Origin: a virus
Taxonomy: Duplodnaviria; Heunggongvirae; Uroviricota; Caudoviricetes
Direction: 5' to 3' (one strand)
DNA: 17,684 nucleotides
IMG/VR virus record: IMGVR_UViG_2667527666_000002
Location: 1-17,684 of that record
Shown here: positions 5,035 to 10,238 of the stretch, piece after piece
How the letters are laid out: each line of letters opens with the position of its first letter
Position numbering within the stretch: position 1 is the stretch's first letter
The notes under the pieces: generated by a model
Database searches by the model: none
Seen by the model: only the letters and a program-made list of their open reading frames with translations
Told to the model about the DNA's origin: nothing
Translations under genes and position numbers: made by a program

Positions 5035-5397
5035 TTAATGACCTGCTGCGCGTAGTTTTCCGTCAGGTTCACCGGCAAGAGTCAGTAATTGTCCCTGGTC
5101 TTCCTGCAGAATAGTCAGGCGACCACCGCGATTGACATACATCGGCGTTTCGGTGGTGTCTTCTTCGGAAATTTTCCCGCGGTTAGTTGGGCGAACATAT
5201 GAGAGTTTGTGTTTGATTTTCACACGGTTCTCATCAAACGGTTCGATTTCCAGGTTGAGCGAGACCTTACCTTTGGTTTTCGTGTTCATCACACCGGAAG
5301 CGACTTCACTGAGAACAGCGCCGATTTTGGTTTCAAATACGCCGCCGTCCAGCTCCCCGATAAATGCCTGCACATCAGTACTGCGTTCGCTAGCCAT
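5035..5397 (-). CDS. Hypothetical phage protein, 120 aa (YfdP-like); first gene of the leftward early operon
   Basis: Start set at the internal ATG at 5397 (MASERSTDVQ...) preceded by GAGGAG 9 nt upstream; the longer 197-aa ORF in the track has a non-protein-like N-terminal extension running into the structured leader. Confidence 0.65.
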   Translation of the reverse strand: MASERSTDVQAFIGELDGGVFETKIGAVLSEVASGVMNTKTKGKVSLNLEIEPFDENRVKIKHKLSYVRPTNRGKISEEDTTETPMYVNRGGRLTILQEDQGQLLTLAGEPDGKLRAAGH

Positions 5398-5445
5398 TTT
5401 GCTGCTCCTCATCATATCGACCCTGCAAGGTCGGTTGGTTTCTCC

Positions 5446-5580
5446 ACAAAACAGAGAAGAACACCTGCGGTGACTGCCGCCCGGATGGATTGGGTTATGA
5501 GCCCGTCGTCCGGTGATTCTCTTCTCTGTTTTGTAAAAAGAGCGGTACCAGCCGGAAGCAAGGGTACAAACTGGTACCGC
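5446..5580 (-). other. Structured element: perfect 15-bp inverted repeat (5446-5460 / 5520-5534, 59-nt spacer) followed by a 10-bp stem (5542-5551 / 5571-5580); candidate cis-acting RNA in the early-left leader
   Basis: Both inverted repeats read directly from the sequence; they lie about 50 nt upstream of the first early-left start codon in a region with no convincing ORF. The strand is assumed from the surrounding operon. Confidence 0.35.
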
Positions 5581-5999
5581 CAAAGCAGTGGCTGTTGTGG
5601 TGGGGTTGTCACTCAGGCGTATGGTCAACCTGACAATCCGGTGCCCTCAACGGGGAAAGAGTAACCCCGCCATACTTACCGCCGCGCCATTTCGCGGATT
5701 ACCACAACGCTGAGAGCACTTAGCCAGTTACGGCACCACACTTTGTCGCGGCTCCATAAATGCCCTCATCGTTGCACCCTGGTCTCTTCCCAGGCGTCAA
5801 ACCGAATCGCCACGCTGGTTAGGCGTCTTATCAGCATCATCATTGACTTGCACATTCCGGCTACCTGGTTTGTTTGCCCGAGCAAGGAGTGGATTGTCCC
5901 CTTTAACGTCCCCAGACCGCTAACGACGCATGTGCCATACGCCGTGTTACAACCAAATTTTGTTAGTACCTTGTTTGTTTGTCTGGAAAGAAAGATAAA

Positions 6000-6050
6000 A
6001 TGAAGTTGCGCATTATGCAAGTGTTTTTGTTGCGAGATATGCAATTTAAA
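6000..6050 (-). promoter_or_regulatory. Candidate OL/pL: two operator-like sites TTGCGCATTATGCAA (6006-6020) and TTGCGAGATATGCAA (6030-6044)
   Basis: Two 15-bp TTGCG-N5-TGCAA dyads 24 bp apart, matching the motif found in the cI-cro intergenic region; located just beyond the end of cI where lambdoid phages place OL/pL. Promoter -35/-10 hexamers are not confidently assigned. Confidence 0.45.
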
Positions 6051-6061
6051 GGGTAATGAAA

Positions 6062-6079
6062 AGCCACCTTTGGGTGGCT
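6062..6079 (-). terminator. Candidate terminator of the repressor gene (stem AGCCACC / GGTGGCT, 4-nt loop)
   Basis: Hairpin about 20 nt beyond the cI stop on the minus strand, followed there by UUU then CAUUACCCUUUAAAUU; the U-tract is short, so the call is moderate. Confidence 0.4.
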
Positions 6080-6099: not shown

Positions 6100-6792
6100 T
6101 TAATTGTGTCGCTTAAGGGTTTGTGACTGGCTGATTAAGACCTTTCCAAAGACCATAAACCGGTGTTCATTTTCGCTGGTAATTCCCCATTCACGGTAAA
6201 TCTGGTTATCAGAAATCACCAGTAGTTTGTCAGGTATCATTTGCAGTCGTTTGACATAAATTTTATCATCAAAACCAAATACATAGATACCATCTCCATC
6301 AAACTGATTGATACTGACATCAACGAAGATGAGATCTCCTGGCTCAATGGTTGGACACATACTGTCCCCACGAACGTTGATAACTTTAATGTGATTGGCT
6401 GGCCGTCCGCCAAACATCGATACAGCATTATCAGTTCTGTATTCAATGGCATGAATCACATCAATGACATCACCGCCCTGGATAAGGCCATTTCCCGCAC
6501 TGGCACTGACATCCAGCATTTCAATACGGAATACATCCTTCACCTGCGCAACATCCTCACTAATACTGTTTTTACATACAGTATTACTTTTGACGTCTGA
6601 GGTAAAGAGATCAGCAATATCAACACCTAAGCTCCTGGCAATATTACTCAGGGCTTGTTCAGTGAATTGTTTCTGCTTACCTGTTTCCAGGCGTGAGATA
6701 TTCGCCGCATCCACTCCTATTGCTTCAGCGAGATCGGCGATTTTCATGTTCTTCGCCTGGCGAAGTTGTCTGACTCGGTTTCCTATGTTCAT
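6100..6792 (-). CDS. cI: CI-like prophage repressor (N-terminal XRE-type HTH, C-terminal S24/LexA-type self-cleaving peptidase), 230 aa
   Basis: N-terminal HTH (IADLAEAIGVDAANISRLETG); Ala-Gly cleavage-site candidate (SASAGNG); catalytic Ser in GDSM and Lys in YVKRL; divergent from a Cro-like gene. Confidence 0.9.
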   Translation of the reverse strand: MNIGNRVRQLRQAKNMKIADLAEAIGVDAANISRLETGKQKQFTEQALSNIARSLGVDIADLFTSDVKSNTVCKNSISEDVAQVKDVFRIEMLDVSASAGNGLIQGGDVIDVIHAIEYRTDNAVSMFGGRPANHIKVINVRGDSMCPTIEPGDLIFVDVSINQFDGDGIYVFGFDDKIYVKRLQMIPDKLLVISDNQIYREWGITSENEHRFMVFGKVLISQSQTLKRHN

Positions 6793-6889
6793 GCGTTTAT
6801 TACATTTCTTTATTGCGCGTTAAGCAAATCAACTTGCGCAAAATATTTGCGTGAAATAATATGCTCATCACGCAATATGTGGAGGTCAT
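6793..6889. promoter_or_regulatory. Immunity-region operator/promoter (OR with divergent pRM and pR): operator TTGCGCGTTAAGCAA (6813-6827), palindrome CGCAAAATATTTGCG (6837-6851), candidate pR -35 TTGCGC (6834-6839) and -10 TAATAT (6857-6862)
   Basis: 97-bp divergent intergenic region between cI and cro containing dyad repeats of the same TTGCG family as the OL candidates, with centres 24 bp apart; sigma70-like hexamers with 17-bp spacing upstream of cro. Confidence 0.6.
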
Positions 6890-7150
6890 ATGCAATCACC
6901 ATTACGGAATGTGCGTAAGGCGCACGGATTTACTTTGCAGCATGTTGCTGCTGGCGTTCAGGTCAATCCAGCGACGCTGAGTCGTATTGAAAGACTGGAA
7001 CAAATTCCATCTATCGATCTTGCAGAACGTCTGGCCAATTTTTTTAAGGGTGAAATCAGCGAAATGCAGATTCTTTATCCGGCACGTTTTCAATCTAGCC
7101 AAAACCAGAATGGGTTTAAACCACAGGAACAGGAGGTAAGCCGTGGGTAA
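6890..7150 (+). CDS. cro: Cro-like XRE-family HTH regulator, 86 aa
   Basis: ATG at 6890 with GGAGG 5 nt upstream; HTH motif (LQHVAAGVQVNPATLSRIE); divergent from cI. Confidence 0.8.
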   Translation: MQSPLRNVRKAHGFTLQHVAAGVQVNPATLSRIERLEQIPSIDLAERLANFFKGEISEMQILYPARFQSSQNQNGFKPQEQEVSRG

Positions 7151-7700
7151 TCATCACTGGAAAGTGGAAAAACAGCCTGAGTGGTACGTGAAAGCTGTCA
7201 GAAAAACTATCGCGGCGTTGCCGGGGGGTTACGCTGAAGCTGCTGAGTGGCTGGATGTAACAGAGAACGCATTATTTAACCGCCTTCGTGCCGATGGCGA
7301 TCAGATTTTCCCGCTGGGATGGGCAATGATTTTACAACGTGCTGGTGGCACTCACTTCATTGCCGACGCTGTGGCGCAGTCTGCAAATGGCGTCTTTGTG
7401 TCTCTTCCTGACGTCGAGGATGTGGACAATGCCGATATTAACCAGCGTTTACTGGAAGTCATTGAACAGATCGGCAGTTATTCAAAACAGATTCGTTCGG
7501 CAATCGAAGACGGTGTAGTGGAACCGCATGAGAAGACAGCAATTAACGACGAGCTGTACCTCTCAATTTCGAAGCTGCAGGAGCATGCAGCACTTGTCTA
7601 CAAAATTTTTTGCGTTTCAGAAAGTAATGACGCCCGCGAGTGTGCAGCTCCGGGCGTCGTGGCGTCGATTGCTTCTGGTTGTGGAGAAACTAACGCATGA
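7143..7700 (+). CDS. Phage regulatory protein, 185 aa, at the CII position (CII / YdaT-like)
   Basis: GTG start at 7143 with AGGAGGT 6 nt upstream; 8-nt overlap with the end of cro; its stop overlaps the next ATG (ATGA). Function inferred from position only. Confidence 0.6.
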
Positions 7701-8035
7701 ACAGTTTAACAACACACTACCGTCGCTCGCAACTGATTGCGCTTCCTGTACCGGGTGGAAAAGCGAAGGTGGAGTATTGCTATGCAGTAAATGTACCAGG
7801 TGACAGGGAAATTGTAACCCACAGCTTTGCTGAGTGGGCTGTGGGAGATTTCAACCGGCAGAAGGAGACAGTCCTTTGCGACAAGTTAACCGCTGGTTCA
7901 AAGATCACTACGGAGTGCCCGTCAGAGTCATTCGTTGGGAGCCGGAAACACAACGGGTTATCTACCTCCGTGAAGGCTATGAGCATGAGTGCTTCAGCCC
8001 GCTCGAACAGTTTCGTCGTAAATTCAGGGAAATAG
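7697..8035 (+). CDS. Hypothetical protein, N-terminal frame (start translationally coupled to the upstream gene); possibly the 5' part of a frameshifted gene
   Basis: ATG at 7697 overlaps the upstream stop (ATGA); first 60 codons are protein-like, the remainder of this frame is low-complexity. Confidence 0.3.
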
Positions 8036-8055
8036 AGGTCGGTCATGAGCACTAA
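7834..8055 (+). CDS. Hypothetical small protein, C-terminal frame (...[39 protein letters not shown]...); true start unclear (a TTG near 7876 follows GAAGGAG)
   Basis: Protein-like frame whose stop at 8053-8055 overlaps the next gene's start at 8045 by 11 nt, as expected for a genuine operon member. Confidence 0.3.
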
Positions 8056-8386
8056 ATTAACCGGCTATGTATGGGATGGTTGCGCTGCGTCAGGCATGAA
8101 ATTATCCAGCGTGGCAATTATGGCCCGCCTGGCTGATTTCAGTAATGACGAAGGTGTGTGCTGGCCATCAATTGAAACTATTGCCCGTCAGATTGGCGCG
8201 GGGATGAGTACCGTCAGAACGGCTATCGCACGGCTGGAAGCAGAAGGCTGGTTAACGCGTAAGGCGCGTCGCCAGGGTAACCGCAATGCGTCGAATGTTT
8301 ATCAGCTTAACGTTGCGAAGCTTCAGGCAGCGGCATTTTCTCAACTGTCAGATTCTGACCCGTCAAAATCTGACGCATCAAAATGA
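8045..8386 (+). pseudogene. Replication-initiator (O-like / winged-HTH N-terminal domain) gene, 3'-truncated by the IS629 insertion
   Basis: N-terminal HTH-type domain ([13 protein letters not shown]...SIETIARQIGAGMSTVRTAIARLEAEGWL); the ORF ends on the TGA formed by the first three bases of the IS inverted repeat (8384-8386); no C-terminal domain. Confidence 0.6.
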
Positions 8387-8425
8387 ACCGCCCCGGGTTT
8401 CCTGGAGAGTGTTTTATCTGTGAAC

Positions 8426-9316
8426 TCAGGCTGCCAGATCATCGTTTCCGATGGAAGCATAATAAGCTTTTTCTGCTTCTGCCGGAGGAGTATGGCCCAG
8501 CCTTTCCAGCAATCGTCGATTGTTATACCAGTCCACCCACGTGAGTGTGGCCAGTTCCACTTCTGCACGGTTTTTCCAGCTCTTACGGTGTATTACCTCC
8601 GCTTTGTAAAGACCATTGATGCTCTCCGCCATCGCGTTGTCATACGAGTCGCCTGTACTTCCTGTTGATGCCAGTAATCCGGCTTCCTTAAGCCGCTGTG
8701 TGTAGGCCAGCGATACATACTGAGAACCTTTATCACTGTGATGGACCGTGCCGGACGGTCGACGGGCCCATAACGCCTGCTCCAGTGCATCCAGCACGAA
8801 TGTCGTTTCCATGGACGATGAGACCCGCCACCCCACGATGTATCCGGCAAACACATCAATGATGAACGCCACATAGACGAAGCCCCGCCATGTGCTGACG
8901 TAAGTAAAATCAGCCACCCACAGCTGGTCAGGTCGTTCTGCCACGAACTGACGGTTTACGCGGTCGCCTGCGGCAACGGCTTTCCGGCTGATGGTCGTAC
9001 GGACCTTTTTACCCCGGAGAACACCGGCAAGTCCCATAACCGCCATGAGACGTGCCACAGTGCATCTGGCCACTCTGATACCTTCCCGTAACAACTGACG
9101 CCAGACTTTACGCACACCGTATACCTTGTGATTTTCATCGTATACGCGCTGTATCTCTTTCTTCAGCCAGTCATCGCGCTGCGCACGGGCACTGCGTTTA
9201 TCCGGATGATGTCGCTGTTGCTGACAGTGGTAATACGTTGACGGGGCAATATGCAGTTCGCTGCATAGCGGTCCGACCCCGTACTGCTCACGCAGCTTAT
9301 CCAGCAGTGGCATCAT
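8426..9316 (-). CDS. IS629-like transposase OrfB (DDE/integrase catalytic domain), 296 aa
   Basis: Translation [29 protein letters not shown]... with a DDE-type core (WVADFTYV ... HSDKGSQY ... [10 protein letters not shown]). Confidence 0.9.
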
Positions 9317-9639
9317 TTTTTCCAGAGGCGGTCGAACTCCGCCTTCGCAAAATAAGCGGAAGCCTGGCGAAGGATATCGTTACTGCGGCGCAGTTCACGA
9401 TTTTCACGTTCCAGCTCTTTCAGACGCTGACGTTCAGCGGTGGTGAGCCCTCCATCACCGCCCCCGGTATCCCGCTCATGCTGGCGAACCCAGACACGCA
9501 GAGTCTCCGGCGTACAGCCAATCTTTGGAGCAATGGAACAAATTGTCGCCCATTGTGAGTCATATTCGCTCTGACTTTCCAGAACCATACGGACTGCCCG
9601 TTGACGGACTTCGGGGGAAAAACGAGTATTTTTAGTCAT
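9313..9639 (-). CDS. IS629-like transposase OrfA (HTH), 108 aa
   Basis: Translation [42 protein letters not shown]...; identical to the orfA of the second copy at 17358-17684. Confidence 0.9.
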
Positions 9640-9693
9640 CCTGTTTACCTCTTTCTCAGGAAGTTTAGTCTCCAGGATTCCCGGGGCGGTTCA

Positions 9694-10238
9694 ATTAACA
9701 CCCTGTTTGGCCCGTTTGTTCTGGATCTGTTCACTGACGGTGATAACGCCAAATGTGCTGCGTATTACACGGCGGAAGACAACGCGCTGGCGCATGACTG
9801 GTCAGAACGCCTTGCGGAGCTTAAAGGTGCTGCCTTTGGTAATCCCCCATACAGCCGCGCCAGTCAGCATGAGGGGCAATACATCACCGGCATGCGTTAC
9901 ATCATGAAGCATGCCAGTGCCATGCGTGATAAAGGCGGGCGCTATGTTTTCCTGATCAAAGCTGCCACCAGCAAGTGTGGTGGCCGGAAGATGCAGATCA
10001 TATTGCTTTTATTCGCGGGCGTATTGGTTTTGAACTGCCTGCCTGGTTTATCCCGAAGGATGAGAAGCAGGTGCCGACAGGCGCTTTCTTCGCTGGTGCT
10101 ATTGCTGTTTTCGACAAGACCTGGAAGGGACCGGCAATCAGCTACATCGGGCGCGATGAACTTGAGGCATGTGGTGAGGCCTTTCTGGCGCAGGTTCGCC
10201 AGCAGGCAGAAAAACTGGTCAGGGAGATGGCGGCATGA
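9694..10238 (+). pseudogene. Phage Dam-type DNA N6-adenine methyltransferase remnant: 5'-truncated at the IS boundary and frameshifted near 9960-9980
   Basis: Frame 1 immediately after the IS reads INTLFGPFVLD...FGNPPYS (NPPY catalytic motif); the C-terminal part (VWWPEDADHIAFIRGRIGF...) continues in another frame (ORF 9975-10238), whose stop overlaps the next gene's ATG. Confidence 0.6.

Follow-up and report, generated by a model that had tools for sequence, protein, structure and literature searches.

Predicted operators and promoters of a lambda-type immunity switch shared by prophages of the mEp460/SfII/Stx2a_1447-WGPS2 group

Background

The immunity switch of phage lambda has three operators in OR and three in OL, which are 17-bp sites spaced at 20-24 bp. 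The operators lie at roughly -19, -42 and -66, and the cI message made from pRM is leaderless. The Stx phage 933W, whose operator and early promoter region was reportedly described by Tyler, Mills and Friedman in 2004, is said to carry a lambdoid switch of the same kind with only two OL operators; it is also said to have three canonical OR sites, and its repressor and operator sequence are different from those of the locus described here. The operators of P22 are unrelated to TTGCG-N5-YGCAA, the dyad with which this report is concerned. The e14 element of E. coli K-12 has the gene order ymfK-ymfT-ymfL-ymfM, with a gene for a YmfL-like CII protein after cro, and its YmfM is annotated as a cell-division inhibitor. 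For the related phage LLS, it is the P22 repressor that has been put forward as the closest among those whose specificity is known, the similarity of the LLS-type repressor to that of P22 being mainly in the C-terminal domain, and the operator specificity of this repressor family was called unknown in that 2025 paper (PMC12315714). In the literature that we searched no mapping of operators or start sites was found for this immunity group, and none of the solved structures searched was close to the repressor.

Sequences and matrix

The comparative set consisted of 16 related loci, found by protein or DNA similarity, whose CI is 66-99% identical to that of the window (the whole stretch of DNA analysed here, 17,684 nucleotides), which makes 17 sequences when the window is included. 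The 16 loci span phages, Shigella, Citrobacter, Klebsiella, Pseudescherichia, Buttiauxella, and Trabulsiella. The conserved columns of OR given below are from 14 distinct OR sequences that were retrieved by protein similarity. A scan of IMG/VR with the pattern ACTTGCGCAA-N15-TAAYATGC gave 119 further usable loci with 69 distinct sequences and 45 distinct spacers, and in this set the columns of the pattern are invariant by construction. In total about 130 related loci were compared, and these sequences are kin to each other and not independent. Operators were scored with a symmetrised matrix of 19 nt built from 42 distinct sites of related loci, in which the window's own sites are partly included and from which the intragenic site at 6911-6925 was left out.

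Results

Genes and sequence identify the region 6793-6889 as the OR control region of a prophage that is lambdoid and belongs to the mEp460/SfII/Stx2a_1447-WGPS2 immunity group. It had been read from the sequence alone as a compact divergent immunity switch, and this is borne out by the two open reading frames that flank it, one coding for a protein with an HTH_3 domain and a Peptidase_S24 domain and the other, on the opposite strand, for a small HTH_3 protein (Table 1). The gap between them is 97 bp in 15 of the 17 loci and 98 bp in the other two. The larger protein, CI, has the HTH_3 domain (PF01381) at its N-terminus and the S24 LexA-like autopeptidase domain (PF00717) at its C-terminus, and the elements of LexA-type self-cleavage are found at the motif positions Ala99-Gly100, Ser144 within GDSM, and Lys181. 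The smaller gene is preceded by GGAGG at 6881-6885, and its homologue is named Cro in the annotations of SfII, PhiR63_1, and Stx2a_1447. A gene for a cII-type activator follows cro, as in other lambdoid switches. The terminator hairpin after cI is kept in relatives and is annotated as a terminator in SfII, which is the only control element of the switch marked in that record; operators and promoters are unannotated in all four GenBank records examined (SfII, mEp460, Stx2a_1447, and 1720a-02).

Table 1. Genes, predicted operators, and predicted promoters of the immunity region (positions are those of the window)
Feature	Position	Strand	Sequence or motif	Remarks
Terminator after cI, intrinsic	6062-6079	minus	AGCCACC-CAAA-GGTGGCT	followed by T-run; from terminator scan
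cI-like repressor gene	6100-6792	minus		230 aa; Pfam PF01381 and PF00717; PHROG 4, 6201
cro-like gene	6890-7150	plus		86 aa, HTH_3; Pfam PF01381
CII/CP76-like regulator gene, YmfL-like	7143-7700	plus		185 aa; PF06892; PHROG 101 (CII-like activator)
OL-a, predicted operator	6006-6020		TTGCGCATTATGCAA	exact motif; 21.0 bits; right half is the predicted pL -35
OL-b, predicted operator	6030-6044		TTGCGAGATATGCAA	exact motif; 19.8 bits; 24 bp from OL-a
OR-a, predicted canonical operator	6813-6827		TTGCGCGTTAAGCAA	exact motif match; 20.5 bits
OR-c, predicted canonical operator	6861-6875	minus	ATGCTCATCACGCAA	one-mismatch motif, matched on the minus strand; 18.4 bits
Operator-like dyad in cro codons 8-12	6911-6925		GTGCGTAAGGCGCAC	3.9 bits; degenerate in the window
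Central palindrome	6837-6851		CGCAAAATATTTGCG	CGCAAA-ATA-TTTGCG; 6-bp arms round ATA; centre 6844
Invariant block	6832-6841		ACTTGCGCAA	contains pR -35 TTGCGC and the overlapped half-sites TTGCG and CGCAA
pR, predicted	-35 6834-6839; -10 6857-6862	plus	TTGCGC; TAATAT	17-bp spacer; start expected near 6869
pRM, predicted	-35 6827-6822; -10 6804-6799	minus	TTGCTT; TGTAAT	17-bp spacer
pL, predicted	-35 6020-6015; -10 5997-5992	minus	TTGCAT; TATCTT	17-bp spacer

The repressor is given a start at Met16, that is 215 aa, in the records of mEp460, Stx2a_1447, and 1720a-02, which is 15 codons short of the start used here and in SfII. The shorter start would cost the protein the first helix of its HTH domain. 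Since the HTH profile sets in at residue 7 of CI and relatives share the first 15 residues at the protein level, the 230-aa start, which includes the codons at 6748-6792, is judged from these sequences to be the better call.

Over the 1.2 kb round the switch, identity is 96-99% with PhiR63_1, mEp460, phiSTEC1575-Stx2k, 1720a-02, and Stx2a_1447/WGPS2, whereas with Shigella phage SfII it is 92%; OR is identical or nearly so in the immunity regions of all these phages. A probe of 301 bp across the switch matched 1040 of 5426 complete E. coli genomes. Because the recognition helix of CI, VDAANISRLETGKQK, is almost invariant across the relatives, the same operator specificity is expected in all of them. 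The recognition helix of Cro, VNPATLSRIER, resembles that of CI. BLASTP of CI against Cro gave no significant alignment, and the likeness of their HTH domains comes from a register set by hand, in which 12 of 60 positions are identical.

Among the known specificities compared (lambda, 434, P22, and e14) none matched this repressor and its predicted operators. The c2 repressor of P22 immC is the nearest repressor of known specificity, and CI is about 43% identical to P22-type c2; the two immunity regions are alike in the domain layout of the repressor and in having an HTH_3-type Cro. The e14 element has the same gene order as the window. The genes after cro in the window (7143-8035), which code for a YmfL-type CII-like protein and then a YmfM-like protein, are e14-like, and the YmfM of e14 is 97% identical to the YmfM-like protein of the window. 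We considered whether e14 belongs to the same immunity group and rejected this: the match to YmfK is confined to 39 residues in the peptidase domain, its HTH domain is unrelated, and the intergenic region of e14 has dyads of the GTAC type that are unrelated to the operators of the window, so that the two are heteroimmune.

Two other parts of the window deserve mention. An insertion sequence of the IS3 family, about 1.3 kb long (8381-9696), has terminal inverted repeats of 28 nt at 8381-8408 and 9669-9696 that are 89% complementary and transposase open reading frames on the minus strand at 9313-9639 and 8426-9316. Since it interrupts the O-like replication initiator gene, of which 8045-8386 covers the first ~112 of 298 profile positions, the prophage is, from its sequence, probably replication-defective. 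On the other side of cI, about 350 bp (5630-5985) separate the predicted start of pL from the next supported minus-strand gene (PHROG 204, within 5035-5628). No convincing minus-strand open reading frame was found in 5630-5985, and the plus-strand open reading frames annotated there in mEp460 match no family; the stretch may be a leader that is not translated, may contain a region of the nut type, or may hold a small gene that has escaped annotation.

The matrix has the consensus (A/T)TGCG-N5-YGCA(A/T), which as a 15-bp dyad reads TTGCG-N5-YGCAA. With this matrix, in which the window's own sites have a part, there are four matches in the window at 18.4-21.0 bits, and the next best match in the 17.7 kb scores 6.3. 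Exact copies of TTGCG-N6-GCAA number only three in the 17.7 kb and all three are beside cI, while the fourth site, OR-c, has one mismatch. The 97 bp hold five copies of the pentamer TTGCG/CGCAA where 0.2 would be expected at the window's own rate (Poisson, ~2e-6). From this and from the related loci we conclude that the predicted operator of the repressor is the 15-bp dyad TTGCG-N5-YGCAA and that it is present in four copies, two in OL and two in OR. Dyads of one consensus thus lie on both sides of cI, as they do in lambdoid switches. Three tandem canonical operators spaced at roughly two turns were not found in OR, which has two such sites and a centre that scores -2 to -9 in all frames.

In OR, the offset of the site OR-a is constant throughout the 17 loci, its half-sites being kept and its N5 centre variable. 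The sequence TTGCGCGTTAAGCAA had already been picked out here as a probable operator with a recognition sequence different from that of lambda, and the comparison upholds this. By position OR-a is the analogue of OR3, and the -35 predicted for pRM is formed by its right half. The site OR-c, which was overlooked in the sequence-only reading, overlaps the -10 and +1 of pR, has a fixed position in all relatives, and is by position the analogue of OR1. The two sites are 48 bp apart in every relative. In OL, both sites are kept in 13 of the 17 sequences. Their spacing is 24 bp in the window, mEp460, and Citrobacter, 23 bp in Stx2a_1447, Eeyore, and Adana, and 22 bp in SfII; over 122 loci, spacings of 22, 23, and 24 bp were counted 7, 15, and 10 times in window-like loci and 9, 20, and 1 times in others.

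A further operator-like dyad lies inside cro, 50 bp downstream of OR-c. It is degenerate in the window, and its equivalent in distant relatives is TTGCG-N5-CGCAW, which scores 12-19 bits at the same offset, including in the loci where cro is disrupted, namely, Pseudescherichia and K. spallanzanii, which have a near-consensus site. In this intragenic site the codons for Leu (TTG) and Ser (TCG) do not change, and the central bases vary. Since the site had no part in the training of the matrix, its scores of 12-19 bits in relatives give the motif independent support, and they suggest from sequence a fourth, intragenic operator in this phage group. The same dyad had come up as a hairpin at 6910-6926, and we do not regard this hairpin as a terminator; it coincides with the intragenic dyad and the T-run is missing in relatives. 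In the Pseudescherichia (L013) and K. spallanzanii (L014) loci cro is disrupted or frameshifted, but cI, the two OR operators, and the site inside cro are still there; the OL pair is absent in the former and one OL site is left in the latter. Going by their sequences, both appear to be prophages in decay in which the repressor and its sites have been kept.

The conserved blocks between and around the operators fit three predicted promoters. Among the 14 distinct sequences, TTGCGC and TAAYAT are invariant at a spacing of 17 bp, which supports the pR that had been proposed earlier with the hexamers TTGCGC and TAATAT, while the 15 bp of its spacer at 6842-6856 have zero conserved columns. The other conserved columns of OR are the TTGCG and xGCAA of OR-a, the rest of the block ACTTGCGCAA at 6832-6841, the half-sites of OR-c, and the ribosome-binding site of cro, together with ATTACA at 6799-6804, which does not vary in relatives and keeps a constant distance to the start of cI. 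Conserved blocks with a free spacer are the expected signature of a sigma-70 promoter that lies between two operators. On the other side of cI, just past its conserved terminator, the OL operators and the hexamer AAGATA, which is the pL -10 read on the plus strand, are conserved at fixed spacing in most relatives, the hexamer being 8 bp to the left of OL. The -35 hexamers of pL, pRM, and pR each appear from the sequence to be a TTGCnn operator half-site.

All three promoters fall under the threshold of 9 of 12 positions in a scan for consensus promoters. The -10 of pRM, TGTAAT, does not have the usual A at position 2, and for this reason pRM may need activation. The hexamer stops 7 nt short of the A of the cI ATG, and a Shine-Dalgarno sequence is lacking; a start of pRM at 6792, the A of the ATG, would give a leaderless cI mRNA, as we infer from these distances. 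Other promoter candidates were discarded. The sole pair flagged by the scan, TCCACA-16-TATTAT on the minus strand (6883-6856), has a -35 that is not conserved in relatives. Inspection by hand gave no partner hexamers for TTGCGT at 6847-6852 as a -35 or for AATAAT as a -10, and the alternative register does not hold in relatives that have TAACAT.

What remains in OR is its centre. The sequence-only reading had noted the palindrome CGCAAAATATTTGCG, which is indeed present and overlaps the pR -35 TTGCGC, and had proposed that it is an operator that binds repressor cooperatively with OR-a over a distance of 24 bp, the spacing of the OL pair. In this proposal 6837-6851 would be a regular OR2. The arithmetic is correct, for the dyad centres at 6820 and 6844 are 24 bp apart and so are those of the OL pair at 6013 and 6037. 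Furthermore, the palindrome lies exactly midway between OR-a and OR-c, 24 bp from each, so that the layout of 15-9-15-9-15 in OR matches 15-9-15 in OL, it is built from the same pentamers as the operators, and OR as a whole forms a long, imperfect dyad round 6844, whose arms of 32 nt are 72% complementary. The proposal also has support from the variation in the lineage of the window. Among its 23 haplotypes the variable columns cluster at 6818-6820, at 6842, 6843, 6845, and 6846, and at 6865-6870, that is, in the centres of the three dyads; at the palindrome the arms are invariant and four of the five central bases vary, a pattern of fixed arms and variable centre that is also seen at both canonical operators.

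However, the half-sites of the palindrome are everted, reading CGCAA-N5-TTGCG where the canonical site reads TTGCG-N5-YGCAA, and none of the 10 arm positions matches a canonical site in register. The matrix scores are -2.0, -9.3, and -3.9 in the three possible frames. The left arm is part of the invariant pR -35 block TTGCGCAA, made up of the pR -35 and two overlapped half-sites, and the right arm is an extra, lineage-specific TTGCG at 6847-6851 in the pR spacer. Relatives whose CI is 93% identical or more have this right arm, and Kp4873-4 has part of it (TAGCG), but it is absent in Eeyore/Flotzy, C. amalonaticus, Pseudescherichia, K. spallanzanii, Trabulsiella, and Adana, which keep a nearly identical CI recognition helix. 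As for the spacing, the match of 24 bp is not a conserved feature, since OL spacing varies from 22 to 24 bp in relatives with the same repressor. Nor is a dyad of this size rare: when the 97 bp are shuffled, a perfect dyad of 6+6 whose loop is no longer than 9 turns up in 21% of the shuffles that keep mononucleotide composition and in 41% of those made with a first-order Markov model, and the palindrome is thus not significant alone. On these grounds we conclude from the sequence comparison that the palindrome is not a canonical operator, and a regular OR2 at 6837-6851 that pairs with OR-a is in our judgement quite unlikely.

If the palindrome is not a regular operator it could have no binding role at all, the left arm being simply the -35 block of pR, the TTGCG of the right arm being there by chance or hitch-hiking, and OR working with two operators. 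The frequency of such dyads in shuffles, the spacer without a conserved column across lineages, and the behaviour of a second, divergent lineage, in which TTGCG, CTGCT, and TAGCA alternate at the position of the right arm, would all be accounted for in this way. The conservation test in the lineage of the window is marginal as well: TTGCGT at 6847-6852 is invariant in the 23 haplotypes, but the significance of this is modest, about 0.04-0.08 in a calculation by hand in which 5 of the 15 spacer columns vary. Against a lack of any role, ten distinct spacers of this lineage all keep TTGCGT while every neighbouring position changes, and the pentamer is an operator half-site placed exactly symmetrically to CGCAA about the midpoint of OR. 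Moreover, most relatives keep some partial site in the centre of OR, which suggests from sequence that the centre is normally used. We therefore think it unlikely, with some weight left to it, that the central element does nothing.

The palindrome might also be the target of another protein, either a site specific for Cro or one for a host regulator of the LacI/PurR type. The arms CGCAAA...TTTGCG resemble PurR half-sites, the PurR box being ACGCAAAC-GTTTGCGT, and an everted geometry would suit a dimer built unlike CI. But the arms are one base too far apart for a PurR/LacI box, the central CpG of the LacI family is missing and replaced by ATA, and the resemblance is confined to the window, the AAA/TTT part being lost in close relatives from SfII and Citrobacter, which have CGCAA-AATAA-TTGCG or CGCAA-TTTAC-TTGCG. 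We rejected the box on these grounds. In the case of Cro, the likeness of its recognition helix to that of CI argues for shared sites. A target of another protein is thus highly improbable.

The relatives point to what the centre of OR may be. Many lineages have a canonical OR2, TTGCGCAAnnCGYWA, which scores 9-14 bits at the equivalent of 6834-6848 and is found in the loci L003, L007, L008, L012, and L015 and in many IMG/VR loci. This OR2 is 21 bp from OR-a and 27 bp from OR-c, which puts it 3 bp to the left of the palindrome, and its left half is the pR -35. In the lineage of the window the same position scores -9 bits and there is no right half of OR2; instead there is TTGCGT 13 bp downstream. 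Because the arms of the central dyad never vary in this lineage while its centre does, a weak, non-canonical binding site there is possible. C. amalonaticus has an additional full site, ATGCGACTTGCGCAA, at the equivalent of 6827-6841, where it abuts OR-a.

Discussion

Taken together, the model that we favour, and hold to be rather probable, is a lambdoid OR switch with four canonical operators and three promoters in which the everted centre is weakly contacted. If the switch works like those of lambda, 434, and P22, the -35 of pL would be covered in the lysogen by CI dimers bound to the OL pair, a dimer on OR-c would cover the -10 and +1 of pR and so shut off cro, and a CI dimer or Cro on OR-a would cover the -35 of pRM. 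Occupancy of OR-a would then lead to negative autoregulation and, in the case of Cro, to the shut-off of cI, and repression would be lifted, again by analogy, by RecA-stimulated self-cleavage at Ala99-Gly100. Our best guess for the lineage of the window is that the everted pair would be a weak contact of the repressor over the -35 of pR that depends on cooperativity, and that the pair would stand in for the canonical OR2 of many relatives. A broader form of the same idea, that the middle of OR is evolutionarily plastic under an unchanged repressor, with an OR2 in some lineages and a bound everted pair in this one, is in our view doubtful. The model has no explanation for how a symmetric HTH dimer would sit on half-sites that face outward, and this counts against it. 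If the everted pair is bound, the binding could be by a CI dimer with flexibly tethered N-terminal domains or by two half-occupied dimers that abut the outer operators.

The likeness to lambda extends to most of the switch. In both, cI and cro diverge from a short gap with dyad operators that overlap back-to-back promoters, which here are predicted ones, another cluster of operators lies beyond cI and would here too control a leftward promoter, CI consists of an HTH domain and a LexA-like self-cleaving domain, a cII-like gene follows cro, and the cI message from pRM is apparently leaderless. The differences are in the details. Here the half-site is TTGCG and the sites are of 15 bp and not of 17 bp, OR has only two canonical sites, at a distance of 48 bp, and OL likewise has two, each predicted -35 hexamer is an operator half-site, and the canonical OR sites are at about -28 of pRM and about -1 of pR. 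The Cro protein is of the HTH_3 type, like those of 434 and P22, and does not have the fold of lambda Cro.

Conclusions

In its concept the switch is, as far as its sequence tells, of the lambda type, and unusual only in having two canonical OR sites and not three and in its ambiguous central element; we regard the region as an ordinary lambdoid immunity switch for which a map of operators and promoters can be put forward. This map, with TTGCG-N5-YGCAA as the consensus, the positions of four sites, and three promoter predictions, is directly testable. If the everted pair is bound, the switch would have a geometry of OR2 that is non-canonical and is not known to have been described for lambdoid phages, together with an extra operator inside cro and promoters whose -35 is an operator half-site. 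The module is present in about one fifth of complete E. coli genomes, and it is also found in the serotype-converting phage SfII and in several Stx2a- and Stx2k-converting phages. In Stx2 phages the control of pR by the repressor governs the induction of the prophage and hence the output of toxin.
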